Shown here: piece after piece, positions 1-51,055 of the stretch
Numbering within the stretch: the first letter of the stretch is position 1
How the letters are laid out: each line of letters starts with the position of its first letter
Source: an uncultured virus (IMG/VR IMGVR_UViG_3300027770_000035)
Lineage: Duplodnaviria > Heunggongvirae > Uroviricota > Caudoviricetes
Virus record (IMG/VR): IMGVR_UViG_3300027770_000035
DNA length: 64,000 nucleotides
Reading direction: 5' to 3' (one strand)
Position numbers and translations under genes: made by a program
Notes under the pieces: generated by a model
What the model saw: the letters and a program-made list of their open reading frames with translations, nothing else
Told to the model about the DNA's origin: nothing
Database searches by the model: none

Positions 1-1380
1 TCCCTGCAACCCTGATGCACCAGTCGCACCAATGGGACCTGTGGATCCAGTGAACCCTGATGCTCCTGTGGCACCAATAGGACCAGTGGTTCCCTGCAAC
101 CCTGATGCACCAGTCGCACCAATGGGACCTGTGGATCCAGTGAACCCTGATGCTCCTGTGGCACCAATAGGACCAGTGGTTCCCTGCAACCCTGATGCAC
201 CAGTCGCACCAATAGGACCAGTGGTTCCCTGAAGACCAGAGGCTCCTGTGGCTCCATTAGGACCAGTTGTTCCTCGAAGACCAGATGCTCCTGTGGCACC
301 AATGGGACCAGTCGCACCTGTGAATCCAATCAATCCAGTAGAACCAGCAGCACCAACAACACTGCTGGCAAGCAGCCAATTGGTAGTTGCTGCTCTATAT
401 ACAAGAGTTACATTAAATACACTAGTATCCAGAGCAAGAGGATTATTGCTCTCCATAATATACTGTCCAGCATTATTAGGAGTAATAACGCAACCAGAAA
501 TACCAGTAGACCCTGATACAATGGTTACAAAGTTATTATCAGCAGGTGTTGCAGGAAGAGTTACATTACTGTTATTGTTGATTAACCAATAATTAGAGTT
601 GAGTTGTGCTGTAAATGCACCACCTGTGGCTCCATAGATAGCAATAGATGCATAGGGACCAGTAGCACCAGAGGCACCAGTGAATCCAGAGGCACCTGTG
701 GCTCCAGTAAATCCAGTCGCTCCAGTGAATCCAGAGGCACCTGTGGCACCAGTTGCACCCTGACCTGTGGCTCCAGTGAACCCTGATGCACCTGTGGCAC
801 CAATGGGACCAGTGGTTCCCTGCAACCCAGAGGCACCAGTTGCACCCTGACCTGTGGCTCCGGTGAACCCTGATGCTCCTGTGGCACCAATAGGACCAGT
901 TGTGCCTTGAAGACCAGAGGCTCCTGTGGCACCCTGACCTGTGGCTCCAGTTAGTCCAGAGGCTCCTGTGGCTCCATTAGGACCAGTTGTTCCTCGAAGA
1001 CCAGATGCTCCTGTGGCACCAATGGGACCAGTGGTTCCAGTATAACCAATCAGGCCTGTAGAACCAGCAGCGCCAACAACACTGTTTGCTAACAGCCAAT
1101 CAGTAGTTGATGCTCTATATACAAGAGTTACATTGAATATACTAGTATCCAGAGCAAGACTGCTGGCAGATTGCATAATGGTTTGATTAGTATTAGGATT
1201 AACCACACAACCAGAAATACCAGTAGACCCTGATACAATGGTCACGAAGTTATTGTCAGCAGGTGTTGCAGGAAGATTTACTGTACTGTTATTGTTGATT
1301 AACCAATAATTGCTATTGAGTTGGGCTGTAAATGTACCACCTGTGGCTCCATAGATAGCAATAGATGCATAGGGACCAGT
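1..1380. repeat. Nested repeats in the collagen gene: 90-bp tandem units (1-90, 91-180, partial from 181) and a ~720-bp duplicated module
   Basis: Bases 1-90 recur at 91-180; ggctcctgtggctccattaggaccagttgttcctcgaagaccagatgc occurs at both 241 and 961. Confidence 0.9.
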
Positions 1381-2001
1381 AGCACCAGAGGCACCAGTGA
1401 ATCCAGAGGCACCCTGACCTGTGGCTCCGGTGAATCCTGTGGCACCAGTAGATCCCACCAATCCAGAAGCACCAGTCGCACCCTGACCTGTGGCTCCGGT
1501 GAACCCTGATGCTCCTGTGGCACCAATAGGACCAGTGGTTCCCTGCAAACCAGAGGCACCAGTTGCACCCTGACCTGTGGCTCCAGTGAACCCTGATGCT
1601 CCTGTGGCACCAATAGGACCAGTGGTTCCCTGTAACCCTGATGCACCTGTCGCACCAATAGGACCTGTGGTGCCTTGAAGACCAGAGGCTCCTGTTGCAC
1701 CAATAGGACCTGTGGATCCCTGCAATCCTGAAGCACCAGTGGCTCCTGTTGCCCCCTGACCTGTGGATCCAGTAAATCCGGTTGCTCCTGTCGAGCCTCG
1801 TAATCCTGATGCTCCTGTAGCACCAATAAAACCACCACCAATATTCAAATCTACATACTGTTTATTGGCAGCATCCAATGGATTGATAGGATCTAACACA
1901 CCAAAGATATAGTTCCCATTCATATCGACGTTCGAATGGGAAACAATAGACTGAGTGGTTAAGTCTATATCGAGATAAAATTCTGTGGCACCAGAAGGCA
2001 T
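1..2001 (-). CDS. Collagen-like (G-X-Y) fibre protein, GATG-rich, with repeated globular spacer domains; 3' end lies outside the window
   Basis: Not in the ORF track because it has no stop in the window. Hand translation from ATG at 2001: [20 protein letters not shown]...[36 protein letters not shown]..., then G-X-Y repeats interrupted by two ~100-aa domains ([33 protein letters not shown]...[17 protein letters not shown]). TAAATA late-promoter core at 2008-2013. Confidence 0.88.
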
Positions 2002-2006: not shown

Positions 2007-2909
2007 TTATTTAGGTGCTAGTAGAAAGTTCACCCACTTATCGATGTGTTTAGACCAGTCATAGTGCTCTCGGGCATACTCCTGAATATCAGTACAGACT
2101 TTCCTATACTCCTCAGGATATGCCTTGGAATAATTAAGCACACCAACCACATCCTGAACGAATAGATCCTCTGCCATATGAACAGCAAACCCACCTCTAA
2201 GTGCCCGAGAATTTTCTCTGAAGTATCCTACTGGAGTTCCGATACACAACTTACCAGCAGCCGCAGCTTCGAGCATAGGCAGTCCTGCACCCTCTTCGGT
2301 TGATGACATAACCACAGCATCCACACTCTTATAGAAAGAAGGCATTCCAAGGTAATGCGTCTGGGGTCGAATCAAAGGCAGACCGACTTTATCACAGGCA
2401 GACTGGACTAATCGGCCTCGCTTGATTTCCTCTCCCGCAAAATTCCTCGACTCAAATGCCGCAGCATATCCCACCTTATTGAGAGACTGAGACACTGGTG
2501 CATAGAATCGATCAAACTCGATGCCCATATTAAGTACAGCAGGTATTCTCGATATTCCGAAATCAAATGACTTCTCCTTTAGTGTTACAGATACTACTCC
2601 ATAGCCAGCAAGATCTTTATATACTTCAGTTCCGATCTGAGAGTTGGAAAGAAGTATGTCCCATTGGGCGTGAGCCACTGACTTAATCTTCTGAGGTGGA
2701 ATATCATATTGCAGAAGCCACCCAACACCAACCGGAGTTGTGACAAAGTATTCAGTATTGTCAGAGATCGCCAGCATTTCTTCTCTGGTATACTGAGTAA
2801 AGAAGTCCAGGACTTCAGCATTGATTCCATAAGGAAGCAGACGTTTGCATAGAGAGTTATGGATCTGTCCAAAGGCCCATTTAGTTTCTGTGAAAAATAT
2901 AATATTCAT
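2007..2909 (-). CDS. Glycosyltransferase, GT4-like (GT-B fold)
   Basis: EX7E motif: [18 protein letters not shown]. Confidence 0.85.
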
Positions 2910-2942
2910 ATTAGTTTGTTGTGAACTTTCTCAATCTCGGCA

Positions 2943-3674
2943 TTAAATAGTTTCATCTTTTATCAACCTGAATCCTTCATTCATTGCTCTGGTAAGATCA
3001 TTTCTCATATATTCCATAGAGGTAGAGGCAGTGGCAAGACCATCATCACCATAGGCCCATCCCTTAAGAGATCCCCATTGACTGAAGTCATTCATAGGAT
3101 GAGGAGGAACATATGTCGCCAATGAAGTATACTTCTGGATCATATGTGAGAACCTAATATCTTCGCCGACAAAAGAAACCTGGTCTAGGGGAGGAAGTTC
3201 ACGCCATAGTACAGAAAGCAAATCCCGATGGAAGAACCACTGGTGACCAACTATATCAACCTTGGTGGTTACTTCATTAGGATTATCCCAACCCACACGC
3301 ATAACATTATGATAGATGCCTTCAGGAAATATTACACCAATGGTTCCAAGAAGTCCTGGTGTTTTCTCGTGAGTCTCAAGACAATTCTTCAACCAATTAC
3401 TTCCGGGAATCGTATCATCATCAGTGATGCATACCCAATTGGTTCTAGCATTCAGGGCATAGGCGAATCTGGACCACACACCGAAGTTGGTATTGGCGTA
3501 TGCAGAGACACATTGCTGAGAAGTCTGGTTGTCATATTCGACTCCATCAACAGTGTTTTGCCAGTAGAAGATGTTGGTTGGTTTGACTGATTGATTGACG
3601 AATGCATCATACTGTTCTTTCAGACGATGTGGACGGCGGAACCCATTAAGAATTACTGTTACGTCAGATGTCAT
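2943..3674 (-). CDS. Glycosyltransferase, GT2/GT-A-like
   Basis: N-terminal VTVILNGFRRP, DxD-type ITDDD, later GEDI. Confidence 0.75.
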   Translation of the reverse strand: MTSDVTVILNGFRRPHRLKEQYDAFVNQSVKPTNIFYWQNTVDGVEYDNQTSQQCVSAYANTNFGVWSRFAYALNARTNWVCITDDDTIPGSNWLKNCLETHEKTPGLLGTIGVIFPEGIYHNVMRVGWDNPNEVTTKVDIVGHQWFFHRDLLSVLWRELPPLDQVSFVGEDIRFSHMIQKYTSLATYVPPHPMNDFSQWGSLKGWAYGDDGLATASTSMEYMRNDLTRAMNEGFRLIKDETI

Positions 3675-3750
3675 AGTTGTCCTTCATATAATTCCAATAT
3701 TCAGTTTCACTTTGCTCAATGGCACCCTTGATAAGTATAGCGACTCTCAT
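3664..3750 (-). pseudogene. 28-aa fragment resembling the N-terminus of ORF 5583-6365
   Basis: MRVAILIKGAIEQ... versus MNVAVLLKGAISK...; overlaps both neighbours. Confidence 0.45.
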
Positions 3751-4877
3751 AAGAATCTTGTATTTGGATTGATTGTAAGAATACCCTTCTTAATTTCTTC
3801 AGAATATGGACTATCAGTAAGTACCACAACAGGATATGGATCATACCGTAGAATCTCAGGACTCTTCACCCAAAGATTGGTTCCATATAATCTCTTACCC
3901 TGTTTGTTTACATCATTGTCAAGAACACATTCTGCTCCAGATTTTAATCCCTGACTAACCAGAAATTGAGTCGGAGGATTTGCACCAAAGATAAAATAGT
4001 CCGGAGGTAATTGTTGATTAAGATGCCAGATCAGATCCTCGTAATGTCTGAAGTAACCGTTGGCGTTATATTCATTACGGTTATAATGATTAGGAACCTC
4101 AACCACAGACATATCTACATCAGCCTTTGTCTTGATCTTCAGTGCAGCAAAAAAGATGCTGTGATCGTCACCAAATAATCGTTTCTCGATCAGAGCATAT
4201 CCATTCGCCTTCAGCCAGTATTGAATGTATGGTTCGGAACACATATAACTATGTTCGAATGTAATTGAACTGATATACCTGAAATCAAAGAAATGTTTTT
4301 CGATGTTAGGTACACTGAAGATCATTCGAGTCCCTACTGGCAGAGTACTCAGATGATCGAAGAATAGTGAAGGCTCATAGACGTGTTCAAGGAAATGACT
4401 ATGAGTAATGGTATCAACATCAGAATCAATGACTGTGTTATCAGAGAAGAATTCATTGATGACCTTCACCGTAGAATCTTCAGGCAGAGTTGTTAATGGA
4501 TCAATGATGGTCCAATCAGCGTCTGGAAATTTCTTAAGGTAATGACTTGAGAGGGTTCCGTGGCCTCCACCAATTTCTAGAATTTTCTTGGAGGAATATT
4601 TCTGCACGAAGTCACAGAATTGAGAGTGATGATCTGCCCAAATTTTTCCTACTGTGCCTGAGAAGTGTGACTTGCGATATACCTTATCCAGAGGAAGTAA
4701 CTGCCTCATCTGAATCATACCAGTGCCTCGGCTGATAGCAAATTCTAGATCAGCAAACTCATCAGTGGATGGATCCTCATCAGTACATCCATGAAATATA
4801 GGAATATCATAGTATGTCTTTAGGTGCTCCAGATCAGCAGCACCACTAACCACATCATTTTTTCTAATCATTTTCAC
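3747..4877 (-). CDS. Class I SAM methyltransferase, NDP-sugar C-methyltransferase-like
   Basis: KILEIGGGHG, HSHFLEHV, FEH, and a C-terminal Rossmann-like FIFGA...VLDND domain. Confidence 0.75.
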   Translation of the reverse strand: MKMIRKNDVVSGAADLEHLKTYYDIPIFHGCTDEDPSTDEFADLEFAISRGTGMIQMRQLLPLDKVYRKSHFSGTVGKIWADHHSQFCDFVQKYSSKKILEIGGGHGTLSSHYLKKFPDADWTIIDPLTTLPEDSTVKVINEFFSDNTVIDSDVDTITHSHFLEHVYEPSLFFDHLSTLPVGTRMIFSVPNIEKHFFDFRYISSITFEHSYMCSEPYIQYWLKANGYALIEKRLFGDDHSIFFAALKIKTKADVDMSVVEVPNHYNRNEYNANGYFRHYEDLIWHLNQQLPPDYFIFGANPPTQFLVSQGLKSGAECVLDNDVNKQGKRLYGTNLWVKSPEILRYDPYPVVVLTDSPYSEEIKKGILTINPNTRFL

Positions 4878-5581
4878 TCACCCCATATACAAATTTTATC
4901 AGAGAACCCAGACACTCCTGTGGAGTAGCATCGTTTATTTCTCACATCATTATTTAACCATCTATCTACGGTAGAACCTACATCGATATATGTATTAGTT
5001 TTATTAGACGACCACAATTGATGGGCCAATATATTTCCAAGAGGACCACAAGAAAATAAAATTAGATGATCAGAATACTTCTTACTTTGAATTTCTCGAA
5101 TCACATTCAGATTATCTACCCAAGCATTATATCCTACAGGATAGAAGTCGGTGACATTGAATGGAAGTTTAATTACATGACTGTTCTCATTAGCGACCAA
5201 AACTATCTTATCCCGTTTAGAAAATTCTGGAATAACGTTATCTAGGTAGAATTGATAATTGCCGTTGACAAATAGATTCGCAAATGTGAGATGGTCGTCA
5301 TCCTGACCTGATGCCTTCACCATATCATAATGAGCTTGTCCTTGGCAGCAGGGACAAGATATTCCGACGTAATACCCAGGATCGTTATATTGGAATGATT
5401 GGATTAGTAATTGGATAGATGGTATTGTATCTTTAGAAATAATCCATTCACCATTTCCAGGATATCCTCCGACTCCACACATAGCCATCCACTCTCCATC
5501 TGCATACTTCGAGAAACAGAACGGTTCTCCGGATTTCATCTTATGTAAAAATTTCTGAATTTCATCACTGAATAGTTTCAA
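4874..5581 (-). CDS. Putative GT-D fold (DUF1792-like) glycosyltransferase
   Basis: FSKYADGE ... SCGPLGNILAHQL ... YIDVGS parallels the GT-D pattern RFGDGE...GPTATVLAYDL...IDIGH. Confidence 0.55.
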   Translation of the reverse strand: MKLFSDEIQKFLHKMKSGEPFCFSKYADGEWMAMCGVGGYPGNGEWIISKDTIPSIQLLIQSFQYNDPGYYVGISCPCCQGQAHYDMVKASGQDDDHLTFANLFVNGNYQFYLDNVIPEFSKRDKIVLVANENSHVIKLPFNVTDFYPVGYNAWVDNLNVIREIQSKKYSDHLILFSCGPLGNILAHQLWSSNKTNTYIDVGSTVDRWLNNDVRNKRCYSTGVSGFSDKICIWGE

Positions 5582-5582
5582 T

Positions 5583-6365
5583 TTACCAATCTCCTAATTG
5601 GTATGTAAGTATTTCTTGTGGATATATTCCATATTGTGATATTCTTTCTGGAACAAGCCTACCATCAGATAATTGCATACCCAATTTCCTGATTACTTCT
5701 TGGTCCCTTCCTGCCAAGATATCATCCATTTCTAAAGGTTTATGCATAAAATTAAGAATATATTGTCCCATGACCTCATGAGGTGTTGGAGGATTGTCTA
5801 TAGAAATAGAATTATATATGTTTCCAAAAAGAAGGGCATTATGATAATTCATCACAAAGTGGAAATCCCCATTTTGATTAGTGCAATGATTGCAGTAAAT
5901 TGTATCCTGAGAATATTGTTCGAGAATTATGTCCTTCCATAATAAGACATCTAATCGATAAAAAATAGTTCGATCATATTGAGTTTCACTTTTGGTTACA
6001 TATTGTTCGAGTAAATCTGTGACTCGTTTAATAGATAAACAATGAGATACTTGACCAAAATCTTGGACGGGAGCACCACAAGAATGAATCTTATTCAACA
6101 ATTCTTGGGTGTATATATCATTTGATTCAAACAAGTATGATTTTGGGCTATACAATTCTACTAATTCTTGTTGCAATTCTGGGTGCCAAGTATGTATGAA
6201 AAAATCAAAACTATGAGAAGGATTTGCCTTAACGATATGTTGTATGATTGAATTATAACAAGACTTGTAATTAACAAAATTCCCTGGTCTATCTGAACCT
6301 CCAGGTAAGTTGGACCTGCCAGTAGTCTTTGATATCGCTCCCTTCAATAAAACGGCCACATTCAT
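5583..6365 (-). CDS. Hypothetical glycan-related protein
   Basis: VAVLLKG...DFFIHTW...YDRTIFYRLD pattern typical of ORFs in glycosylation loci; position within the cluster. Confidence 0.5.
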   Translation of the reverse strand: MNVAVLLKGAISKTTGRSNLPGGSDRPGNFVNYKSCYNSIIQHIVKANPSHSFDFFIHTWHPELQQELVELYSPKSYLFESNDIYTQELLNKIHSCGAPVQDFGQVSHCLSIKRVTDLLEQYVTKSETQYDRTIFYRLDVLLWKDIILEQYSQDTIYCNHCTNQNGDFHFVMNYHNALLFGNIYNSISIDNPPTPHEVMGQYILNFMHKPLEMDDILAGRDQEVIRKLGMQLSDGRLVPERISQYGIYPQEILTYQLGDW

Positions 6366-6370: not shown

Positions 6371-7042
6371 TTATTTCCTATTTAAGAATATTTTTTCAAT
6401 GTATTTAGTATGTTGGGTTCCATCTCCACTAGTGAACACCTGAATTCCAGGATCGTCTAAATGGTTCAGATATATTTTGGATGCAGATATTAGATGGAAC
6501 ATTAGACTCCATCGTCTTTCCATAGCACATGCCTGTTCTTTAGTTGTTGGAGGGATCAACCATTCGTTAGGAATTCTGTTTAATGTGCTTCTGTTAACAG
6601 CAAATATTGGTCCGAATATTCCAAATTCTGGATAAGAGTGTATAAATGGAGATAGATCCTCCTCTGCCCATCGTTGAGAGAAATGATCGTATCTGAAATT
6701 AAAAAAGGGTACTACATCATATTTAGAAAGAAGATCATTCAATTCATTGAACAAGTCTTTATTTTTAATTGAAATCGAATCCTGCAAGAATATGTATGAG
6801 TCGGCGACATATGTGTTATATGCATATATAAATGCTCCAGAATCCCTTTGACTAACAAGCATTCTATCAAATTTATAATTCGGGTATTCCTGTTTCAGTT
6901 CATTAAATTCTAATAGATACTGGGCATCTGTAGAATTTGTATCGACTACCAACACTTCATGTCCATATAAAGAAATACCTGAGATCTCTGCTAACAGAGA
7001 CCTCAGTAAATCCGCTCTGTTATGAGAAGCGATTACAATCAT
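6371..7042 (-). CDS. Glycosyltransferase, GT-A-like
   Basis: IVIASHNR...EVLVVDTNSTD...YIFLQDS. Confidence 0.65.
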   Translation of the reverse strand: MIVIASHNRADLLRSLLAEISGISLYGHEVLVVDTNSTDAQYLLEFNELKQEYPNYKFDRMLVSQRDSGAFIYAYNTYVADSYIFLQDSISIKNKDLFNELNDLLSKYDVVPFFNFRYDHFSQRWAEEDLSPFIHSYPEFGIFGPIFAVNRSTLNRIPNEWLIPPTTKEQACAMERRWSLMFHLISASKIYLNHLDDPGIQVFTSGDGTQHTKYIEKIFLNRK

Positions 7043-7731
7043 GACTTAGTGGCCTTAACGAATATCCATTGGTTATGAGCATCAGAAAAAGAAGGACGAA
7101 TGGTAGTCTCGATATTCTTGAACCCAATTTCTTCAAAATCTTTAATTAGCTGAATTGGATTAGTTACGCTAACATCATGTCCGCTATTAGTACTAGTTGC
7201 ATGTACAGCATCAACATAATACTCTTCAGCATTTGGATGATCAACACCATAACCCATTTGTATCGATACAATTCCATTCGGAGCCAAAGCCTTATACATA
7301 CTTTCTAAAATCTTTCTACGAACTGAATACACACAAATATGTTGTAAGACAATTGTAGACATAATATAATCATAATGATTGTCTTCAGCAGATCCAAGAT
7401 CATTTCCGTTTGTCACAAAGAACTTGAAGTTCTTGTAATTTTGACTAGTGAGTAACGTCTTACAATACTCAATATTAGATCTACTAATATCACAACCATG
7501 AGCTTCCTTAACATTAAAACGTCCTAGCATGTTCATGACATTTCGACCACACCCACATCCAAAATCTAAAACTTTTTTATTTGTCCAATCTCCTTCTGAT
7601 AGTGGACCTAATAAAATATTCCAATAGTCAGGATTCGCATCATGATGTCTATGATTCCCCTCAGACATTCTAGGAGTTTCTGCTTCGTAGAAATCTCTTT
7701 GCATGTCAATATAATCTTTTTCTGTTCTCAT
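7039..7731 (-). CDS. Class I SAM-dependent methyltransferase
   Basis: KVLDFGCGCG, GCDIS, YDYIMSTIVLQHI. Confidence 0.85.
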   Translation of the reverse strand: MRTEKDYIDMQRDFYEAETPRMSEGNHRHHDANPDYWNILLGPLSEGDWTNKKVLDFGCGCGRNVMNMLGRFNVKEAHGCDISRSNIEYCKTLLTSQNYKNFKFFVTNGNDLGSAEDNHYDYIMSTIVLQHICVYSVRRKILESMYKALAPNGIVSIQMGYGVDHPNAEEYYVDAVHATSTNSGHDVSVTNPIQLIKDFEEIGFKNIETTIRPSFSDAHNQWIFVKATKS

Positions 7732-7746: not shown

Positions 7747-9120
7747 TTATTTGTTCGACTCTACGAAATATGTTAAATCTTCTGGCGTGCCTAGTCCCCA
7801 CATTTTATCAACATTGAATGTTTTGACCTTTTTTCCATCTTCAATAGCTTGATTAAACACCGGGCAAACATAGAATTCTCCATTTGTACGAATATTTTTT
7901 TCAATCATATTCTCGGCATATTTTACATAATCAGATCCCTTAGCCCAATAATACACACCAACTGTGGCAATATTAGATATGGGATTCTTCTCGGCAACCT
8001 CAGTGACATATCCCATATCATCGATCTTAGCAAAAGACCATTTAGGGTGAGTGGCCGTGAATGTGACCATTCCGGCATCAACATGGGGATCCTCCATCTT
8101 ATACATGAATTCGTTTGAATTCCATTCTAAAAACTGATCTGAATTTGCCATCATTAATGGTTGGTCATTATCAATATATTTCTTGGCAAGTAGAGTGGTA
8201 CACGCAGCACCTTCTGTTACTCCATCTACCTCTACTAGTATACTACCAGGAGAGACTAAAGTCAATAGAGAATCTAGATTATATTTCTCTCTATGGGCCT
8301 TCTGCACTACGAAAATGAATCTACCAGTCACATTCAGATTCTCTACTACTGCTTGAATCATGGGTTTTCCGAAAACATCAATCAATGGTTTCGGAAATGT
8401 GTATCCCGCTGATTCAAATCTCGAACCCGCACCTGCCATCGGAATCAATATATTCATATTACCACCTTGCCATTTAGGAATTGGGTTGGTTGTGTTATTT
8501 TCTATGTTATGAATTTTATCCATAATCTTTGTTACACTGACATCTTCAGAATTTTTTACACGTAGAACATGAGCACCAGATGTGGCTGCTGCAAGTAGAC
8601 CGTGTGGAGAATCTTCTATGATCAATGTTTCTTCTGGGTATACATTAAGATCCATCATTGCTCTCCAGTATATACTGGGATGAGGTTTAGACAACACGAC
8701 ATCTTCATTAGAAAATATGACATCCATGTATGATTCAATCCCAATCTTATTCAAAGAAATCAAAACAGTTTGTTGAATAGAATTAGAGCAACATCCAAGA
8801 ACATATCCATGTGATCTTAATTCTTCGCACAGAACTATTAGTTTTGTGTTTTCTCGGAGGTTGATAATAATATCTAATGTGAGATCTTGTTTTCTTGACC
8901 AAATTTTAGAATAACTTTCTTCAGGAAGACCTTTGGTCTGAGTCAATAATTTGAGCTTGTCATTAGTCTTCAGACCATCATACAATTTCATATGGTCTGT
9001 CATAGAAATGATATATTCTTGACCAACTACCTGCAATATAGCCGCATTCAAAGTTTCGTAATGAATCGCTTTGGTGTCTATCAATACCCCATCAAGATCG
9101 AATAAAATACACTTAATCAT
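7747..9120 (-). CDS. HAD phosphatase fused to a sugar-phosphate nucleotidyltransferase
   Basis: N-terminal ILFDLDGVL...KPHP...IEDS; C-terminal NILIPMAGAGSRF...FPKPLI...GLGTPEDL. Confidence 0.88.
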   Translation of the reverse strand: MIKCILFDLDGVLIDTKAIHYETLNAAILQVVGQEYIISMTDHMKLYDGLKTNDKLKLLTQTKGLPEESYSKIWSRKQDLTLDIIINLRENTKLIVLCEELRSHGYVLGCCSNSIQQTVLISLNKIGIESYMDVIFSNEDVVLSKPHPSIYWRAMMDLNVYPEETLIIEDSPHGLLAAATSGAHVLRVKNSEDVSVTKIMDKIHNIENNTTNPIPKWQGGNMNILIPMAGAGSRFESAGYTFPKPLIDVFGKPMIQAVVENLNVTGRFIFVVQKAHREKYNLDSLLTLVSPGSILVEVDGVTEGAACTTLLAKKYIDNDQPLMMANSDQFLEWNSNEFMYKMEDPHVDAGMVTFTATHPKWSFAKIDDMGYVTEVAEKNPISNIATVGVYYWAKGSDYVKYAENMIEKNIRTNGEFYVCPVFNQAIEDGKKVKTFNVDKMWGLGTPEDLTYFVESNK

Positions 9121-10442: not shown

Positions 10443-11018
10443 TTATTTCCTCGTAATTTCAATCAACATGTCATCACCACGACCCTTGACGTTTCTTAGA
10501 TCCATAATATTATAATCATATACTGTGTCGTCAATATTATCCATCAATTTGGTGATGTTGTCATAGTCCAAGTCCTCGATTACCATCTTACCATCCGGTT
10601 TGAGGAACTTCATATAGTTATTGAGAAGAAAAATTTCATCGTGAACAAGGTGAGTACCATCATCAATAATGATATCGAATTGTTTGTCTTCGATTAACTT
10701 CAGAGTCTTGAAACAATATGCATTGACTAACTGATGATTGGTGATTCGATCTGCTCCAATCAGATCGAATAGACGAGTAGAGAACTTATCCTGAATATCA
10801 ATAGTAGTGAACTTGGCCATAGGAAGAAGCTGACTCATTGCAAAAACAAAGCCTCCCTGCCAACATCCCACTTCCAAAATCTCACATTCCTTATCCTTAT
10901 ATGGAGTTAGGAGTTGTTCGTAATAAGGACAATATGAATGCTCGGATGCCTTATCAGTACCTCCTTCAAACCAAAAACCATTCAGGTTATTATCGGTGAT
11001 GATTTCTTCTAGTGTCAT
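10443..11018 (-). CDS. SAM-dependent sugar O-methyltransferase-like protein
   Basis: GTDK..HSY..YE..ILEVGCWQG..FDIIIDDGTH..VIED. Confidence 0.75.
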   Translation of the reverse strand: MTLEEIITDNNLNGFWFEGGTDKASEHSYCPYYEQLLTPYKDKECEILEVGCWQGGFVFAMSQLLPMAKFTTIDIQDKFSTRLFDLIGADRITNHQLVNAYCFKTLKLIEDKQFDIIIDDGTHLVHDEIFLLNNYMKFLKPDGKMVIEDLDYDNITKLMDNIDDTVYDYNIMDLRNVKGRGDDMLIEITRK

Positions 11019-12187: not shown

Positions 12188-12238
12188 TATTATTATTATA
12201 CTACGTTTCAATCAGAAAGTCAAGTGATAATTTATTTA
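12188..12238 (-). promoter_or_regulatory. Sigma70-type promoter plus upstream late-promoter core ahead of the glycosylation cluster
   Basis: TTGACT(12223-12218)-17 nt-TATAAT(12200-12195); TAAATA at 12238-12233. Confidence 0.8.
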
Positions 12239-12712
12239 GACACCTGGCATCACAGAGGTTGCGCCCAGAGCATTTAGTGTAGAATCATATCTCCAATAGA
12301 TGTATGATGTGGATCCATAGTAGGCAGAAGGTCCGATACCTGTGGCTCCGGTGGCTCCAATATTCGCATCAATGTTGAAGTTGGTGGCCGAAGGATTGAC
12401 CACAACAATACCCTGAAGCACTCTGGATGTTAAGCCACTCGCAGTAGTATTCACATCATAGAAATATCTTCCAGGAGGAACAGTCTGAGTTGCAGCAGCT
12501 GACATTGTCAGAGTAACATTACCAGCAGTTGCAGGAGCCGGAATGGTTACTCCCATAGCATATACATTGAGACCAGAATAATATGACTTTCTCATCAGAG
12601 CAATACCAGTAGCACCTGTAAGATTAATAACAGTTCCTGCCTGATTATGCACAGTAACTGTGGTTGAAAAGTCTGTTGCCTGATCCAACGAGAGGTTCGT
12701 GTATTGAGCCAT
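12236..12712 (-). CDS. Putative virion structural protein with GATGATG
   Basis: NLSLDQATDF...MRKSY...GRYFYDV...RVLQGIVVVNP resembles small structural proteins of T4-like phages; TAAATA 5 nt upstream. Confidence 0.6.
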   Translation of the reverse strand: MAQYTNLSLDQATDFSTTVTVHNQAGTVINLTGATGIALMRKSYYSGLNVYAMGVTIPAPATAGNVTLTMSAAATQTVPPGRYFYDVNTTASGLTSRVLQGIVVVNPSATNFNIDANIGATGATGIGPSAYYGSTSYIYWRYDSTLNALGATSVMPGV

Positions 12713-15709: not shown

Positions 15710-15718
15710 ATATCTTAT

Positions 15719-43200: not shown

Positions 43201-46200
43201 AGAATGGATTGAGATTGATTGGAGTTGTGGCCTGAGGCTGAGATACTACGGTATTCGAATCATCAAACGCAGCAGTAACCAGATCGCCTCTCTTGATATA
43301 TCCTGTGGCTCCATCAGTAGACTCTAAATTAGTTATCAATGATAGACCATATGATCTCTGGAGGAATGCTGGACGAAGTTCCTGATCAGCAATATCAATA
43401 GAGCAAGTATTGTCAGGATTGAATACATCAGAAATATTTGTTCCGGTGAATGAATCAACCAGAATAGAATTATTGAATCGAGTATTACCATTGGCATCAA
43501 CCACATTAAAGGTCGAGGTGGATTGTTCCAAGGCACTCAGAGCAGCATAATATTCAAGGTTGACGATTCTATCTTCCAGCTTTGAGATATCATTCATTGT
43601 ATATCTCTTGTTGCTGATCGCAGTAAGACCTACTGAATCAGTTCCATATGTATACGCAGGAATGTACATCGTATACAGGTCAAGAGAATTATCAATATCA
43701 GCAGGAGCCTTGGGCGACTTGCTGGGTGTGCCTGTGATATCAAGGAACTTACCATCAGAGGTTACAACAATCTTATCGATTCTCGGAAGGTAATATGATA
43801 TGGTAGAGATGAAGTTAGAGTTAGGAGCAGCAATTGTCTGAGCACTCACGAATGTATTAGCAGTCAGCTTTGTTGGACGACAATCGATAGCATTGAATAA
43901 ATTGATTCTTCTACCAGTAGAATCATTGTAATACTGAGGAATATTCTTATTGCTATATGAATTTGCACAGAAGAACCCATCATTGATACCGTGAGACAAG
44001 TATTCAAAGAAGATTACCACCGGAGTGGCCACAGCCTGACCTGTGCCTAATGTGACAGAAGATAAGTCATAATAATTATCTCGCTGACCATTATCGAATG
44101 TGTATTTACCAGTAACATCATTGGCAGTATTGAACCAATCGGTTGAGGTAGGATTTCCTGAGGTAGTGGTAATAATCTTCACGATCCGAGTTACGTCTGA
44201 CACACCCAGAGAAATAGTTCCCATTCCTGTGGCCGAGTAGACATAACCCGTACCAGAAGCACCTGTGGTAAATGTAGGACACACATTGTATGTGGATTCA
44301 GTGGTTACTGTGACAGGCACAGTAAGTGTTGCAACTTTAGTCGATCCTCCAACATATGACTGAACAGTATATACTGTACTACCTGAACCAGTACCCGAGG
44401 TGATGGTGAGATTGCTATAGAAGTTATCAGTAACTGATGCATCAGCCGAAAGAGTAACGTTTGTGCTGGCAGTAGAATTTGCAGCAAACTTACCCTGAGT
44501 TGACATCGGAGCCAGAGTCTTGGTGTTGGGTACGGCATTACTATTATTGATGTATGCAGTAACAGTCAGAATATCAGTAGGATTCTGTGGACCTGTTGCT
44601 CCAGCAACCGAAGAAATAGTTGCAGTCTGCTGACTAGCTGATCCAGGATTATTCAAAGCCAGATTGTATGTGGTGATAGCAGCCGTTAATGGATTACCAG
44701 TCACAACATAATATACTGATTTGGTGGTATTATCAATTCCTGTTGATCCTGCGACACCCTGAAAGCGTTCACGAGCAAATGGAGTCTGGAAAGTTCCTGA
44801 TCCAGCAGTAAGATTCACAGTGAACTGTTTACGATAAGACACATTCATCGTGCCAGTCGATAGATTATCTACAACATCATATCCAGTATCGTATACCAAT
44901 GAAGTTGTTCCGGGGAATGATAGAGCAGCCGGAGTGGTAACCAAGAATAATTGATTCGAAGATGACCTGACATCATTATCACCAATCGAAGTAACAGATG
45001 TGAAGGTCTTATTGGGAGTGCCTGTGATAGTTACATCAAACAAATATAGATTATAACTGCCAGCGGTTCCAGAGTATTCGATGTTCCTTGCTCTGGCAGT
45101 ACCGATGGTGTTATTGCCGCTATCATAAAGATACAGACTCTGGAAAGCACTGATGGTGGGTTGACCCTTGGAAAGGGTTACGATTGCATAATTTCCATAG
45201 GTGATTGATGTATAATGATTTGTATCAGTGGCAGTGGTTCTTGCCTTATTAATCGGAAGAGATTGCTTGGCGATTGTGGATATCTCAAAACCCTTTACGA
45301 ATGCTTTGCCCGGAGCAATCTTGAGCAGCATCGAAGGACCAGTCGCACCCACAGCAGGATTGACTTCAAGATTGGCCACAAAGGGATTGACAATGAAGTC
45401 GCCGTTTGTATCATAGGTTCGTCTCGCAAGCACCTTCAAAATTTCAGAGTATGAAGGACCAGTGATTTGTTGCTGAAGAACACCAGCATCAACTCGGAGA
45501 ATTTCAATGAATGTACTTGCACTGGTTACTGAATTAATATCCAGTGCAGTAAGTACCAGATTGATCAGAAGTCGATCTGCACCCGGAGCAGCATAGTTAT
45601 AAGAACCATTGGCATTATCCAGCAGAGTAGTATCTACTGTGGAATCCACCGTGGTGATGTTGGCTACCAAACCAACTTTCTTGGTTGGAATGTTGTTATT
45701 CTTATTCAGATACACGGTCTGAGCAGGACAGATTACAAAGCTACCCTGAGTGAAGAAGATACCATCGTCAATTGATACCGTTGAAGACGAACCAGTGAAG
45801 GATGTCGCAGCCACAGTAACAGGGAGGATTGTAGTGAGACCACCAGTCACAGTAACAGATTCTGAGGCAGAGAATGAGAGACCAGTCAGAGGTCTATAGA
45901 TAAGAGTATTAGGATCTGTAGAATCTACGGCAACAACAAGACCAATTGCTCCACTAGTCCCACCAGTAATTGTGGCACCAACGAATGAGGTGATTGTCTG
46001 AGTATTGTTGAATAGTACAAGATACCGAGCAGTAGTGACATCCAGAGTAGATTGTCCACCCAGAATAAGAGACCCGTCATTAAAGATATGACTGCCGAAT
46101 CTCTGGACCTGAGTCTGTAGAATTGCCTGAAGTTGATTTAGTTCTCTTGCCTGTACCGCATACCCAGGCTTGAATAATACTCGCAGGAAGTCCTTTGTCT

Positions 46201-46255
46201 CAGGAGAGTAGTCATCAAAGTAGGGTGCTGAATTAAGAGTGGAAATTACAGACAT
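40262..46255 (-). CDS. Large virion structural protein, VrlC/DUF4815-like
   Basis: PYFDD, VLFKPGYAVQARELNQLQ, APGADRL, LARRTYD..GDF, YYLPRID, RYTMNDI..LE.RI.NLEYY, PLAQTF, AKYITR. Confidence 0.88.
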   Translation of the reverse strand: MSVISTLNSAPYFDDYSPETKDFLRVLFKPGYAVQARELNQLQAILQTQVQRFGSHIFNDGSLILGGQSTLDVTTARYLVLFNNTQTITSFVGATITGGTSGAIGLVVAVDSTDPNTLIYRPLTGLSFSASESVTVTGGLTTILPVTVAATSFTGSSSTVSIDDGIFFTQGSFVICPAQTVYLNKNNNIPTKKVGLVANITTVDSTVDTTLLDNANGSYNYAAPGADRLLINLVLTALDINSVTSASTFIEILRVDAGVLQQQITGPSYSEILKVLARRTYDTNGDFIVNPFVANLEVNPAVGATGPSMLLKIAPGKAFVKGFEISTIAKQSLPINKARTTATDTNHYTSITYGNYAIVTLSKGQPTISAFQSLYLYDSGNNTIGTARARNIEYSGTAGSYNLYLFDVTITGTPNKTFTSVTSIGDNDVRSSSNQLFLVTTPAALSFPGTTSLVYDTGYDVVDNLSTGTMNVSYRKQFTVNLTAGSGTFQTPFARERFQGVAGSTGIDNTTKSVYYVVTGNPLTAAITTYNLALNNPGSASQQTATISSVAGATGPQNPTDILTVTAYINNSNAVPNTKTLAPMSTQGKFAANSTASTNVTLSADASVTDNFYSNLTITSGTGSGSTVYTVQSYVGGSTKVATLTVPVTVTTESTYNVCPTFTTGASGTGYVYSATGMGTISLGVSDVTRIVKIITTTSGNPTSTDWFNTANDVTGKYTFDNGQRDNYYDLSSVTLGTGQAVATPVVIFFEYLSHGINDGFFCANSYSNKNIPQYYNDSTGRRINLFNAIDCRPTKLTANTFVSAQTIAAPNSNFISTISYYLPRIDKIVVTSDGKFLDITGTPSKSPKAPADIDNSLDLYTMYIPAYTYGTDSVGLTAISNKRYTMNDISKLEDRIVNLEYYAALSALEQSTSTFNVVDANGNTRFNNSILVDSFTGTNISDVFNPDNTCSIDIADQELRPAFLQRSYGLSLITNLESTDGATGYIKRGDLVTAAFDDSNTVVSQPQATTPINLNPFSVFDWVGSLAITPNNDTWYDIQVGPVNLTSPNGIYDNFHPGAVNPYGSLYNQWNNLWYGVHTTTSYENTTEYDSVSTTTRGADATGSVYGLQPITPGGTADKLFGPLAIFSGHSEAIATTSVAVRKGPFLTSDPNDIVGYWNLYTEPTYVTNITTVPRSVTNAVTSSTNVPVPPPIGLNQYQIGNMVTNIAMTQFIRSRTLTFSAVGLKPFTRVYPFFDGKTAAAGVTPTGGTLGGALTTNAAGAVSGTFTITLGAYYTGSNIFLLTDNVNGTRTAETTGCQTTYKVQGLADPSLSLATPLALVDATSFQSVSQNQPQTKIYPLAQTFYIDNTNYPEGIFLSKADLFFATKDPTLPLTVQIRDTSNGYPSPTNILSTVTISAASVNTSTTGTVATTVTFPNVVYLKPGEYCIVLIANSNLYAPWAAVIGQKQIGSSTLISQRPYVGNIFRTQNASSWTADVTTDLAFNLYYCKFSTTYPFVTTWSDYDRDPGGVPTAADNIITINTVTGSTGATLYFTDIMAPSLVYGAIVGSTGATGAIPASTTITGGSVTAGSITLSNTLNYPIQSGTPITFYRKPQGVLRPNVIMVPEESYNPFSSTSISQAIKGSTGPGFIDSTYTTLATNKNFAYPSSAYQVVTAGESFRKKVTCSTTSQYVSPVLNATRQSVIAVQNVVNNVSGFTTTLTANVGSTGITIVGALAATGAGVVQQLGATSFGTSTPTSGVIINGAEQINITGALGATGITVVRGYNSTTPAATGALALLNRFLTTIPVADALTINNNDILNFTGATGPGAEFMQVVSGGNVANATNLTVIRGYNGSTIGSTGASGIVNDITLDETRPTGGGAYAKYITRPVVLSTNSSYIKIYLTANKPANSNVLVYYKVLSADDSSTLASKNWTLMQQVSPATSTYSTDPTQFLEYQFLPYASGATGVTQAIYYKSGSVTYTNFIQYAIKIVMLSADPLLVPRVSDFRSIVLQ

Positions 46256-46281: not shown

Positions 46282-47874
46282 TTAGTATTCGATGACAACT
46301 TTTACGTCTTCTATCTGATCTGGGTATCTTATGATGGGCTTTCTGTTCTCTACATAAAGAATATCTCCCACGTTGACAACCGCAGCCGCAGGAGTCACCG
46401 CAGATATAGCAACAGGACCTTGTGCCAACTGAGTTCCAGCGACGAATGTTCCTGTTACTGAAGTGAGATATAGTTGATTTTTGACAGTATCATACTTCAC
46501 AACAGTTCCACTCGCTCCACCTGATGTTACGGTAGAATCCAGAGCAAAGGATCCTACCTCACCCAGAGTAAGCACCACACACTGATTCAGTACAGCCGAG
46601 TTGGCAAGAATCCCATACTTAGAAGTTGTATCAGGAATGGTTGTCCAGTTAGAAACAAAGGACACGGCAGGGACCACATCATTGACATAGTTACTGATTA
46701 CATTAACCTGACCTGCACCAGTACCAGATAGAATTACCATACTCTTACCAGCAGTAGGATAGTAGGGTGTGGTGGAAATCATAGGAGAAGTTGCTGCGTG
46801 CAGTGCATTCAATCTCAGAGTATTGGGTCCGGTGGCACCACCTGCTCCTGTCGCACCTGCATTATAATATGATCCGGTGAAGATGGGATTGGAAACAATC
46901 CCGATCTGCCGATACTCATTGGTGTCTACAATCTGACCACCTTCATTACCATTGACTCGAACCTTGACCATAAGATTGGTGGCATTCAATTCTTTGATAG
47001 CATCGGCACCGTGATAGGGAGCAGAACCAGCCAGAGCATTTTGTTGAATCGTCCATTGATCCGAACCATCATTTGATTTAATGGTTCTTACAGGCAGCCA
47101 GCTAGTTGTTTGAAATTGTTCTGCATCAAAAGCCGGAATGGTATACATATACTTCCAGATGTATCCATCAACTGTTGTTTCTGAAGCACCTGCCGAAGTA
47201 GATGTGGAAGTAGGTTGAACAGTACTTCCTGCGCTGATATTACTATTGTTACCCAGACACTTATAGACTCTGTTGGAAGTATTGACCACATAGAATGGTT
47301 GGATATCAAAGGTGGAAGGAGTGGTACCTGATAGAGTCAGAGGATCAGTGAATGTAATTGTCGGAACCACAGTGTACCCAGTATTACCTGTTCCGGTGAA
47401 TGTAATTGCAGTCACGGAACCCGCAGAGATAGTGGCAACGGCGGTGGCGGTGTTTGGTGCGCCAGTAATAGTTACTGTAGGAGCAGTAGAGTAGTTAGAA
47501 CCAGGATTTGTAATTGTACATGAAATAACTCCACCAGACACAGTTGCTGTGGCCGTGGCCCGAGTATATGTCTGAGCAGTGGTCAGAGTCTTGATATCTA
47601 CTGAGGCACTATACTGTTGATACTTTTTGCCAGTAACCCAACCATAATAAGGAACCACATTAACCACATTGGTAGGTTGTACTCTTTTCATATAGACCAT
47701 ATCACCGAAGATATCGTTCTGAAGATTAACACAGTCTAGGGGAGTATCAGGAGAGTTAACATTGGACCAGGCAGTGGGATCAGAAAATGAGAAATACACA
47801 CTCTGATTTGTCACGTTGCTGACAAAGTTATTGACGTTCTTGAGTCTGAGTGATTCTGTTAGAATGTTTGGCAT
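46282..47874 (-). CDS. gp8: Baseplate wedge subunit, gp8-like
   Basis: FYVVN..NRVYKCL.N, DGYIWKYMYTI, YRQIGIV.NP, GDILYVENRKPI.R..DQIEDVKVVIEY. Confidence 0.85.
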   Translation of the reverse strand: MPNILTESLRLKNVNNFVSNVTNQSVYFSFSDPTAWSNVNSPDTPLDCVNLQNDIFGDMVYMKRVQPTNVVNVVPYYGWVTGKKYQQYSASVDIKTLTTAQTYTRATATATVSGGVISCTITNPGSNYSTAPTVTITGAPNTATAVATISAGSVTAITFTGTGNTGYTVVPTITFTDPLTLSGTTPSTFDIQPFYVVNTSNRVYKCLGNNSNISAGSTVQPTSTSTSAGASETTVDGYIWKYMYTIPAFDAEQFQTTSWLPVRTIKSNDGSDQWTIQQNALAGSAPYHGADAIKELNATNLMVKVRVNGNEGGQIVDTNEYRQIGIVSNPIFTGSYYNAGATGAGGATGPNTLRLNALHAATSPMISTTPYYPTAGKSMVILSGTGAGQVNVISNYVNDVVPAVSFVSNWTTIPDTTSKYGILANSAVLNQCVVLTLGEVGSFALDSTVTSGGASGTVVKYDTVKNQLYLTSVTGTFVAGTQLAQGPVAISAVTPAAAVVNVGDILYVENRKPIIRYPDQIEDVKVVIEY

Positions 47875-47881: not shown

Positions 47882-50800
47882 TTAGACCTTTATGATATTT
47901 ATTTCGGATTCTTGGATGGATTTGATTCTCTTCCCTCGTGTACTGTAGTTCCCAGATACCGAAGCCACAGGTATATTTAGTCCATTACAGGACAGAGTCG
48001 AGGCAGTGAAGTCAGGAGACACCGGATCCTTGAAAATATAGAGTAGGTTATTATCCTGATCCCATTCATCAACACTTCCCTGAGCACCCGTGGATGGCTG
48101 AATAACTCTGCAACCTTTACGAATTCCTGGAGCATCAATAACTACTGAGGGAGGCGAAGTATAATCAAGACCATTGGTAGTCAGAACAATACTGACCACA
48201 CTACCACCAGACACTTCTGCATAGGCCTGACCACCCGAATCCGTAACAGTAGTTCCAGAATAGGTGATAGTCGCTCCGCCACCATTCAAAGTTACTCTGG
48301 GAGTTTCTACATATCCGGCTCCAGATGCTCCAGCAATCACTGTTATTCCGGTGATAGATCCATTGGCAATAGTAGCCTTGGCCTGAGCAGTCTTAAACAC
48401 TCCGGTGGCACCCGGAACAGAAAGAATCACTCCACCCACAGAAGAGTAGTTTAGATAGTCCGCAGCCGGAGCACTGGTATTACTCTTTAGATCCACATAG
48501 GCAAAGGCAGGAACTGTTATCGCAGTAGGATTGGTGATGGTTACTTTGGGAGTCGTGATATAACCAGAACCTGTTGCACCCAAAGTCAGAGCAGTAATAA
48601 CTCCACCAACCACCGTGGCGTAGGCAGTGGCCTGAGTTCCTACCAAAGGAGCATCGATTGTAACCAGGGGACCAGTCGCTCCTGATGAATAACCAGAACC
48701 ACCAGAAAGCAGAGTGATAGAATCCACATAGGTCGTGAAGTAACCAGAATTATTATATAGATCCTTGGAGATATAGTATGTTGAATTGGTATTCGGAGCA
48801 GTCGAGAACACAGGAGAATAGGTGATGATTCCTGAGGCACCATCAAAACCTACGATGGTCGAAGACTGTCCTGAGCCTGTGCCCGAAGTAACATATAACT
48901 TGTAGTCTCGGAATGCATGGCGTGAGGTGCTGAAGGCAGTGGCACCTATAGTATGAGTTGTTGCACCAGTTCCATAATAGGCACGAGTAACATTGAGAAA
49001 GGAAGTGGCTCCTGCCAAAGAACCTGTGGCTCCATTGATCAACATCTTCTCGGAGTCTACCAGAATAACATCATTGGTGTTATAGTAATCGTCGTTCTGA
49101 GTAACCACAGGAATCACACCAGTAGATGCATCTACCGCAGCGGACAGAGTAGAGACCACATAGTTGGTGAATCCATAGTTGAGAAGATTACCAAAGGCAG
49201 TCGCACCCTTCATGGTACCATTGGTATTATTGACAAAGGTGAACCGAGGATTTTCCAGAAGTCTATAGCTACAGACCGATCCCGGATATCCAAATTGAAT
49301 CGGAGTGTCAAAGGTGATACTCTGGTTGGCAGAATTATAGCGAGTGACTGTGCGAGTAAGAACACCAGTGGCACCAGTGGCACCAATGATGGCAGTGAAT
49401 CCCACCAGATCCGAATCATTGGTGAAGTGTCCTGATGCACCAATATTAAGAACTCCGGTGGCTCCGGTGGATCCCTGAGTTGTGGTAGTGCCAGAAAAGT
49501 CCTCAAAGAATATGGGTTCGGTATAACTCTTGAAGAAATCAATATTCTGATAGGTGGGTCCCAGTGCAGCACAGGCCGGAGAGGATGAACTTACAATACT
49601 AATATCAGGTCGAGGATTTACATTGGTCTCGGAGTCTGTGATACCTGTAGTCAGAGGATCATCGAATGTAATTGTCGGAACCACAGTGTACCCAGTGTTG
49701 CCTGAGGTGAATGTTATTGCCGTCACAGAACCCGCATAGATAGTGGCAAAGGCAACTGCTGTGTTTGGTGCTCCTGTAACAGTTACAGTAGGAACAGACG
49801 AGTAATTATAACCAGGATTTGTAATTGAATATGATAGTACTCCACCAGTGGCACCAACCAAAGCTGTGGCTGTGGCCCGAGTATATATATGATATGCAAT
49901 CTGTTCATTCAGAGTAAGGAAGATAAAATACTTGAGTCCAGCCGGATGAATAAGTTCTTCAATCAGATTCTTGAACTGAGTGATTGATTGATCTGCTCGA
50001 AGTTCATAGGAGAACTGCTGATAGTAACGTGAATCCTGGATCTTCTTATTGGACGAGGGTTGACCATCGGTGCCTAGATATGATCCATTGGCCACATAGA
50101 AGATACTTGTGGCTCCGGTGTTATAGGTGGTACCAATCTTCTCGGCCTTACCAGTGATAGGATAGTTGTAGAGGTCTTCTGGAGTGGTTGAGAAGGCGCC
50201 ATTAATCCCCGAGAGATCATAGAGATAGACGGCTCCGGTTGCTCCCACAGAATCCACCAGAGCCACAGCATTAGAAGTATTACCAATCACTCGATGACCC
50301 ACATAACCATTAGGATCTATTCCCGGAGCACCTGTTAGAGAGAGATAATTATTCTGAGTCCACTTACCATCGGACACCCGAAGCATATCCGTAGAAGGAT
50401 AGTAGAAGTTCAGATCCGTATTGAAAAGAATTCTGTACAGGAACCTGAGTGAATCTTCGGTTCCCTTAGACCCATAGAATTGTTTGATGAACTTGACAAA
50501 CTTATTAACTTCCACAGTAACATCATTCGAATATAGATTAACAGGGAAGTTAGGAATATACTCATTGGTCAGATAGGTGGTGAGTAGATCATATTCATTG
50601 TCGATGTCTCTGACAGAAACCGAAGCCTTGGTCGCCTGATTGATATTACCAAGATTGTTTACGACCACCGGAGCAGCAACAGCGCCAGATCCCGTGGTAT
50701 CGGTGATGACTACTCGGACGGCATCGGCATCGGTATAACCAGAACCATACGCACTGACCACAATCTTGGTAAGCTGTCCCTGCTTTATCACAGCAGTAAC

Positions 50801-51055
50801 CACGGCACCCTTGGTGTCACTGATGTACTGACCATAGGTTACTGAACTCACCACGTTGTCTAGGATCTGTAACTGAACAGTAGGAGCAGCAGAATAATTC
50901 TTTCCAGAATTCGTAACCTTTACTGCAATGAGTTGACCAATGGATCGATCCAGATAGGAATAGTACTGCTTGATGAAAGACACAAACAGCGGATAGGTAT
51001 CCCGGATGTACTGAGGGATCTGAGATTCGATGAATAGACTACGATTGAAATCCAT
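47882..51055 (-). CDS. gp7: Baseplate wedge subunit, gp7-like
   Basis: QIPQYIRD.YPLFV.F, FY.SKGT..S..FL.RILF, KKIQDSRYYQQFSY, HPAG. Confidence 0.8.
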   Translation of the reverse strand: MDFNRSLFIESQIPQYIRDTYPLFVSFIKQYYSYLDRSIGQLIAVKVTNSGKNYSAAPTVQLQILDNVVSSVTYGQYISDTKGAVVTAVIKQGQLTKIVVSAYGSGYTDADAVRVVITDTTGSGAVAAPVVVNNLGNINQATKASVSVRDIDNEYDLLTTYLTNEYIPNFPVNLYSNDVTVEVNKFVKFIKQFYGSKGTEDSLRFLYRILFNTDLNFYYPSTDMLRVSDGKWTQNNYLSLTGAPGIDPNGYVGHRVIGNTSNAVALVDSVGATGAVYLYDLSGINGAFSTTPEDLYNYPITGKAEKIGTTYNTGATSIFYVANGSYLGTDGQPSSNKKIQDSRYYQQFSYELRADQSITQFKNLIEELIHPAGLKYFIFLTLNEQIAYHIYTRATATALVGATGGVLSYSITNPGYNYSSVPTVTVTGAPNTAVAFATIYAGSVTAITFTSGNTGYTVVPTITFDDPLTTGITDSETNVNPRPDISIVSSSSPACAALGPTYQNIDFFKSYTEPIFFEDFSGTTTTQGSTGATGVLNIGASGHFTNDSDLVGFTAIIGATGATGVLTRTVTRYNSANQSITFDTPIQFGYPGSVCSYRLLENPRFTFVNNTNGTMKGATAFGNLLNYGFTNYVVSTLSAAVDASTGVIPVVTQNDDYYNTNDVILVDSEKMLINGATGSLAGATSFLNVTRAYYGTGATTHTIGATAFSTSRHAFRDYKLYVTSGTGSGQSSTIVGFDGASGIITYSPVFSTAPNTNSTYYISKDLYNNSGYFTTYVDSITLLSGGSGYSSGATGPLVTIDAPLVGTQATAYATVVGGVITALTLGATGSGYITTPKVTITNPTAITVPAFAYVDLKSNTSAPAADYLNYSSVGGVILSVPGATGVFKTAQAKATIANGSITGITVIAGASGAGYVETPRVTLNGGGATITYSGTTVTDSGGQAYAEVSGGSVVSIVLTTNGLDYTSPPSVVIDAPGIRKGCRVIQPSTGAQGSVDEWDQDNNLLYIFKDPVSPDFTASTLSCNGLNIPVASVSGNYSTRGKRIKSIQESEINIIKV

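Follow-up and report, generated by a model that had tools for sequence, protein, structure and literature searches.

In Clostridioides difficile, the soluble glycosyltransferase SgtA is encoded beside the GAT-rich collagen gene of BclA3 and modifies Thr or Ser in short peptides with a single site, converting 39% of a GATG and 71% of a GASG peptide within 24 h (PMC7157674). Mycobacteriophages encode several glycosyltransferases that have been proposed to coat the particle; the modification is reported for siphoviruses, where it sits at the C-terminus of capsid and tail tube subunits (Freeman et al. 2023, as cited in PMC11256854 and PMC12619734). In addition, PMC11923368 reports that galactosylation of Thr makes (Gly-Pro-Thr)10 triple-helical and that viral collagens contain anomalously many TGA triplets. 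Here, we describe a locus of a T4-like myophage (uncultured virus, IMG/VR record IMGVR_UViG_3300027770_000035) in which a glycosylation cassette is followed by a collagen-like fibre gene, and the main word of that fibre, G-[AS]-[TS]-G, recurs in unrelated virion proteins. Counts cover the window, that is, the whole stretch of 64,000 nucleotides (nt) analysed, from a contig of 130,114 bases. On balance we favour reading the word as a collagen O-glycosylation signal that has spread over the particle, which would then probably be sugar-coated at G[AS][TS]G. As proposed, the system operates in the manner of SgtA/BclA3 and of mycobacteriophage virion glycosylation, although its enzyme type places it in neither group.

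As in C. difficile, a Gly-x-Thr collagen-like gene adjoins the transferase locus. However, SgtA combines a GT-A fold with tetratricopeptide repeats (TPRs) and acts on one spore protein, whereas the constant enzymes here, the first and last cassette genes (GT4a and GT4b), are of the GT-B (GT4) type and the word stands on many virion proteins. No SgtA-type GT2-TPR enzyme was found in the 64-kb window, in which two GT2-like open reading frames (ORFs) of 223-243 residues fall below the Pfam cut-off and have no TPR match. In apparent contrast to the mycobacteriophage sites, the putative site is a recurring tetrapeptide inside proteins of the baseplate, neck, sheath and fibre of a T4-like phage. No mycobacteriophage was among the 57 records for GT4a or the 4 records for GT4b, the two cassette enzymes covered by that search. 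A literature search, with subscription papers mostly outside its reach, brought up no paper on this motif.

On the minus strand, gp13, gp14 and gp15 are followed by a gene for a 158-residue protein, the twelve enzyme genes (12178 to 2007) and the fibre gene; the baseplate operon of gp6, gp7, gp8 and a VrlC-like protein, also on the minus strand, spans 52859 to 40262. The fibre gene (1..2001, minus strand; PF01391, phrog_6320), which we presume to encode the original acceptor, is interrupted by the window start, with 2 kb inside the window and its 3' end outside. Its 133 collagen triplets are poor in proline: 48% are G[AS][TS], Y is Thr or Ser in 68% and never Pro, and 1% of X/Y residues are charged. 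The 75 motifs counted (2.27 expected from 2000 composition shuffles per protein, p 0.0005) bear out the description of GATG/GASG/GSTG as the main unit of the fibre in an earlier note on this DNA.

Using the same shuffles, dispersed motifs were enriched about 20-40-fold in five further minus-strand genes. The VrlC-like baseplate protein (40262..46255; DUF4815/phrog_358) contains 15 (0.57 expected, p 0.0005), ten of them within its last 480 residues, and the gp7 baseplate wedge (47882..51055) contains 13 between 50245 and 48331 (0.40 expected, p 0.0005). Three occur in the gp8 wedge (46282..47874; positions 46857, 46839 and 46518; 0.13 expected, p 0.002), three GATG in the small neck/fibre-associated protein of 158 residues (12236..12712; phrog_1084/3304; first bases 12616, 12358 and 12349; 0.07 expected, p 0.0005) and one GASG in the gp14 neck protein (14315..14950; first base 14413; 0.01 expected, p 0.011). 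The exact counts equal those made by hand in the earlier note, and the enrichment over shuffled controls that it proposed was obtained in all six motif-bearing proteins (p 0.0005-0.011). Likewise, gp6, gp5, gp25 and gp53, said there to lack the motif, have an exact count of 0, as has gp15. Since gp6 (51057..52859, minus strand; 24% Thr/Ser) is as Thr/Ser-rich as gp7 yet motif-free, it serves as an internal control.

The 35 dispersed sites comprise 21 GATG, 7 GSTG, 7 GASG and no GSSG. Position 3 is invariably Thr or Ser, and all 13 G-x-T-G words of VrlC are GATG or GSTG. Two extra GSSG matches, one in ORF 38882-40024 (p 0.33) and one in a NUMOD3 homing endonuclease that adjoins the tail completion gene (35223-35957, minus strand), look like chance. 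The gp8 site at residue 453 sits within an S-G-A-[ST]-G element that is present in motif-poor relatives too. The occurrences had been called isolated and non-collagen; they do lie in unrelated virion proteins, but several are tandem (GSTGATG-type). Composition alone was ruled out as a source of the motif by the shuffles and by a comparison of 214 loci, and an origin in a mobile element or a DNA repeat of recent date by the mixed codons of the sites (12 spellings among the 15 in VrlC) and by matches to the fibre of at most 16 nt.

Only virion proteins show the excess; in this phage and its close relatives the word stands there about 25 times too often. Virion ORFs of the window and of two relatives, G024 and G015, contain 36, 43 and 40 sites versus 2.9, 2.0 and 1.3 expected, and the 37, 54 and 34 other ORFs contain 1, 0 and 0, together 1 site in 32,684 residues where about 2 would be expected; the labels were assigned by hand, and 11 of the 43 G024 sites lie in two ORFs without a firm virion family. 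In G024 the word occurs three times in the sheath, once internally in gp23, four and seven times in two small ORFs, and not in the tail tube; the capsid gene of the present phage lies outside the window. The sheath and gp23 sites fall at or beyond the margins of the conserved regions that align with T4-type structures, in segments that we take to face outward. A 172-residue protein of G024, encoded between the portal and prohead protease genes (locus L216, 12679-13194), contains four GATG, has no PHROG match and is possibly a head decoration protein. In another record, G037 (L667-L666), a 780-residue fibre carries 14 non-collagen sites and the baseplate is clean; this fibre is perhaps an intermediate stage of motif spread.

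We surveyed 214 loci that each provide 800 or more residues of gp7, gp8 or VrlC. Of these, 11 were motif-rich (two of them from the same contig and several near-identical), with gp6, where present, 47-92% identical to that of the window; the remaining 203 hold 218 sites versus 118 expected, a 1.8-fold background. The rich loci form one clade of the gp6 tree (support 0.96) with two branches. Across the 214 loci no other GxxG word takes the place of GATG, except Gly-rich words in five. Among 59 gp7 homologues, the 31 closest motif-bearing proteins have 4-15 sites and 24 distant ones 0-3, and P0033, P0034 and P0035 have 4, 2 and 23. Sites of the 31 closest occupy 55 aligned positions in 36 separate places, and alignments show gains and losses even at 92% identity, through substitutions in hairpin turns and short insertions. 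The portability claimed earlier is upheld by these 36 places, over which density persists, and by the sheath and capsid sites of G024. The exception is gp14: of 74 close homologues, 49 have the motif, almost always at a single site that persists across 54-97% identity with Ser/Thr swaps; the motif is lost in some lineages and repeated in others. Of the distant gp14 proteins, 18 of 46 have one GATG, at different places, which is a sign of structural background. We conclude that the motif excess is strong, lies at the protein level, and is virion-restricted, clade-specific and mobile.

GT4a (phrog_3408) is linked to GAT collagens. Among the matches listed, taking records of at least 30 kb with GAT (28), GAQ (26) or GPT (23) collagen patterns, GT4a occurs in 15, 0 and 4, respectively (Fisher p 5e-6 versus GAQ and 0.01 versus GPT, the records not being independent). 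In near-complete records the counts are 7 of 11, 0 of 4 and 1 of 6, and the close GT4a subfamily (E <1e-150) is present in 8 of 28 GAT and 0 of 49 other records; the GT4a-positive records vary in size between 37 kb (a complete genome) and 204 kb and are uncorrected for kinship. Within 10 kb flanks of collagen loci from the same matches, GT4a was found at 8 of 76 GAT, 0 of 80 GAQ and 3 of 78 GPT loci. The cultured phages matching GT4a are S-CAM7, ACG-2014f and S-CBWM1, and it adjoins GAT collagens in S-CAM7 and the unrelated S-CBWM1; a tblastn search of the fibre against cultured phages gave no match, probably through low-complexity masking.

With respect to the baseplates, all three motif-rich records that span both regions (the window, G024 and G015) carry the GT4 pair, and five complete or near-complete GT4a-negative relatives (G001, G002, G003, G107 and G047) are motif-poor. 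No GT4a-negative, motif-rich record was seen, though few are long enough to show one. GT4a is visible at 10 of the 18 neck loci of the clade, the remaining 8 ending before its position, and in none of 28 baseplate records, which are mostly fragments (three motif-rich ones too short), so that absence was counted for the complete G107 only. The L004, L865 and P0032-P0034 records cover the baseplate side without a linked cassette region. GT4a is thus present wherever checkable in the rich clade and does not force motif spread.

The 12-gene cluster reported earlier (2007-12211, minus strand) was recovered as two GT4 enzymes, two GT2-like proteins, a GT-D enzyme, three methyltransferases, a HAD-nucleotidyltransferase and three genes without a named family. 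GT4a (11015..12178, ATG at 12178), the best candidate for a priming enzyme, has a PF00534 domain, a GT-B fold (model with predicted local distance difference test score, pLDDT, of 88; template modelling score, TM, of 0.70 to 7fg9) and viral neighbours in the Atlas. GT4b (2007..2909; phrog_18799) was found in 10 of 47 records, with GT4a present in all ten. Between them lie the GT2-like proteins (2943..3674 and 6371..7042; PF00535 E 0.006 and 0.002), S-adenosylmethionine (SAM) methyltransferases at 3747..4877 (profile match, weakly like the sugar O-methyltransferase NanM), 7039..7731 and 10443..11018 (family matches), a phrog_13607 gene (5583..6365), a HAD phosphatase fused to a sugar-phosphate nucleotidyltransferase (7747..9120; family match), probably for donor synthesis, and two genes without a family match (9117-9854 and 9820-10440) whose homologues recur in the cassettes of relatives.

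The remaining enzyme (4874..5581) has a GT-D fold (Atlas feature score 0.95; TM 0.73 to a PF08759 model; TIGR03728 E 0.045), its counterpart in locus L083 matches PF08759, and it is a probable chain extender. The earlier note had invoked GT-D/DUF1792 enzymes as protein glycosylators; the fold is present, but in PMC5063993 DUF1792 transfers glucose onto a protein that already bears a glycan, extending glycans and not starting them. The arrangement resembles the Fap1 pathway of that source (Gtf1/2, Gtf3, DUF1792/GT-D), in which a GT4-type primer is followed by GT-D/GT-A extenders in the cytoplasm. However, GT4a lacks the larger GtfA architecture (387 versus about 500 residues; TM 0.53), and no GtfA/GtfB priming complex, Gtf2 partner, serine-rich repeat substrate or accessory Sec was seen.

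Comparing L083, G024, G015 and G025, the cassette middle varies while GT4a and GT4b bracket it: the GT4a of L083 is 96% identical to that of the window and is followed by other genes. The S-CAM7 cassette consists of the two GT4s alone (64% and 38% identity), beside GAT collagens. Separately, the alternative cassette of L083 has a RuBisCO-like protein between the two GT4 genes (7054-8253, plus strand). The constancy of the GT4 pair bears on a reading that we find very improbable, namely that the motif is modified by another chemistry or enzyme, such as a phosphodiester-linked sugar or polyol made by the HAD-nucleotidyltransferase with a cassette gene lacking annotation, or by a primer encoded outside the window. 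Three cassette genes lack annotation, half of the source contig (66 of 130 kb) lies outside the window, and, among the matches listed, 3 of 5 GAT records without GT4a carry a GT2 domain; but the HAD-nucleotidyltransferase is absent from the cassettes of G024, G025 and S-CAM7, in which GT4a and GT4b are constant.

Bacterial homologues of GT4a are few. A plasmid collection gave three matches, two Pseudoalteromonas genes at 44% identity and a partial 31% match, and genome contigs gave one, a partial gene at a contig end. The Pseudoalteromonas genes close a peptide-maturation cluster (L845 6904-11149, L851 1901-6149) that also contains a 79-residue Gly/Ser-rich double-glycine-type precursor, a radical SAM enzyme resembling XyeB (below cut-off) and an HExxH-containing ORF without annotation. 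Its product is possibly a glycosylated cyclophane peptide; a literature search found no description of the cluster. This context hints at a peptide acceptor. In Omnitrophota, the sole genome with GT4a among 151 belongs to the five with a GATGATG pattern. This source gives no support for a link of GT4a and motif: the pattern in that genome lies outside ORFs of at least 150 residues, and G261 matches the pattern 17 times without a match to GT4a.

Several observations weigh against a glycosylation signal read by this cassette. The earlier note expected relatives without the cluster to lack the motif, as the five GT4a-negative relatives do, but the enzymes are insufficient for its spread: G025, G037, G054 and S-CAM7, four phages that do not belong to the rich clade, have GT4a and GAT collagens with 0-4 sites in gp7, gp8 and VrlC. 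Because of such GT4a-positive phages with motif-poor baseplates, the link between motif and enzyme rests on one or two evolutionary events in the gp6 tree. Among the matches listed, 13 of 28 GAT records, 4 of them complete, lack GT4a, and GT4a also occurs in records without a GAT collagen inside the fetched flanks. The Pseudoalteromonas precursor lacks the motif and has no collagen nearby. Motif-poor L004, whose record has no linked cassette region, is nested within the rich clade, and the gp7 homologue P0032 (44% identity) has 0 sites, the other 31 of the 32 closest carrying 4-15. Motif residues change like other G/A/T/S residues (10/99 versus 108/1196; 9/103 versus 90/1221) and at 40-50% identity are less conserved. 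The predicted placement in exposed loops was not significant in a single gp7 model (mean pLDDT 63), with motif Thr/Ser in coil in 8 of 12 cases versus 72 of 152 others (p 0.24); sites of gp7 homologues mapped on it are in coil in 34 of 50 cases versus 345 of 710 residues. Finally, sites match the DNA of the fibre gene slightly better than expected (11.2 versus 10.2 nt, p 0.016).

This DNA likeness, together with a shifted Ala codon use (p 0.019), would fit a cassette that modifies the collagen fibre only, the dispersed words being recombination-seeded by-products tolerated in Gly/Thr-rich turns and either unmodified or modified without benefit. The collagen-like flanks and tandem forms at the sites, the lack of conservation of individual sites and the 1.8-fold background in other phages are also consistent with it. 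We nevertheless judge it unlikely: the same S-CAM7, G025, G037 and G054 have 100-200 collagen copies but clean baseplates, the longest match between a site and the fibre is 16 nt (2 kb of fibre compared), non-virion ORFs show no excess, and the gp14 site endures across divergent relatives.

Further points against the glycosylation signal concern the enzyme and its promoter. The solved folds nearest to GT4a are Tll1591 and biopterin glucosyltransferases, which use sugars or biopterin as acceptors, and GtfA ranks 41. A sigma-70-type promoter match (11/12; 12195..12223, minus strand) lies directly before GT4a and, of 17 loci located among 18, 7 show such a match at this place, as does S-CAM7. Small acceptors and an early promoter favour a cassette acting on the host surface (lipopolysaccharide, LPS, or its O-chain) or another non-virion target, with the motif as a non-covalent feature, either a word at which a decoration protein or a chaperone docks or a turn sequence specific to the clade. 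Indeed, pelagi- and cyanomyophage glycosyltransferase islands in the same setting by neck and fibre genes differ from ours in their published reading, which in PMC7029224 (islands between VrlC and gp14 in pelagimyophages) and PMC12801897 (the cyanophage S-SCSM2R island) is host surface or DNA modification; S-CAM7, for its part, differs from the window in its motif-poor baseplate. We regard this explanation as quite unlikely, since it leaves unexplained why GT4a tracks Thr-collagens and not Gln-collagens among the matches listed, and why position 3 is strictly Thr or Ser. Homologous turns in other phages are built from other residues, and in L094 and L124 a late-promoter match within 60 bases of GT4a replaces the sigma-70 match. 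Early expression of GT4a would fit enzymes made ahead of their substrates and also host surface modification. A T4 late-promoter match, TATAAATA, precedes gp13 (15716..15723, minus strand; 6 matches in the window versus 3.2 expected by chance) and could read through to the cassette.

From the sequence we infer that the motif is glycosylated, which enzyme is responsible and, by gene neighbourhood, that the glycan is methylated. It is quite likely that the cassette glycosylates Y-position Thr/Ser of the proline-poor GAT fibre, which would help the triple helix to hold. The chances seem evenly balanced that GT4a puts the first sugar on a short peptide. Extension would then fall to GT4b together with the GT2-like and GT-D enzymes, while the HAD-nucleotidyltransferase would supply the donor and the methyltransferases cap the chain; swapping of the cassette middle between relatives would alter the glycan. 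In this clade the word has arisen repeatedly in proteins of the baseplate, neck, sheath and capsid, at turns and within short insertions, which may reflect selection on the number of sites and not their place and would give a particle-wide coat. Such a coat might help adhesion, mimic the host surface, reduce sticking or grazing, or shield against proteases. The full proposal, a portable O-glycosylation sequon read by a virus-specific GT4 subfamily as a new peptide primer, moved from collagen onto the particle, with turnover like that of a glycan shield and a swappable methylated-glycan cassette, is tentative and in our estimate falls slightly short of an even chance.

Other features of the window were noted. 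A fold search with gp7 yielded only confirmation of its T4 gp7 identity. An inserted domain in gp15 (12731-13756, minus strand) is common to fibre and baseplate families, and L006-type gp7 proteins contain repeats similar to it, with the motif placed in a turn. A DUF1552 (HXXSHH) protein of 452 residues (21333-22691, plus strand; E 3e-102) is rare for a phage and a possible host clue, and a tRNA-Met gene lies at 27761-27836 (plus strand). The minus strand of 53500-57400 has nine strong sigma-70 matches, mostly in a repeated element heading short gene units that resemble T4-type early promoter cassettes; two units encode hexapeptide-repeat paralogues of ORF 25389-25931, and the plus-strand Pro/Arg ORFs 54410-55066 and 55451-56053 are shadows of these units.

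If the glycosylation signal is real, it would be the first case of a sequence rule that governs how a phage particle is glycosylated, and it would provide a small soluble enzyme together with a tag of four residues. The part that concerns the fibre is relevant to the cultured cyanophages S-CAM7 and S-CBWM1, and many glycosyltransferase islands of aquatic myophages would shift from host LPS modification to tailoring of the virion.

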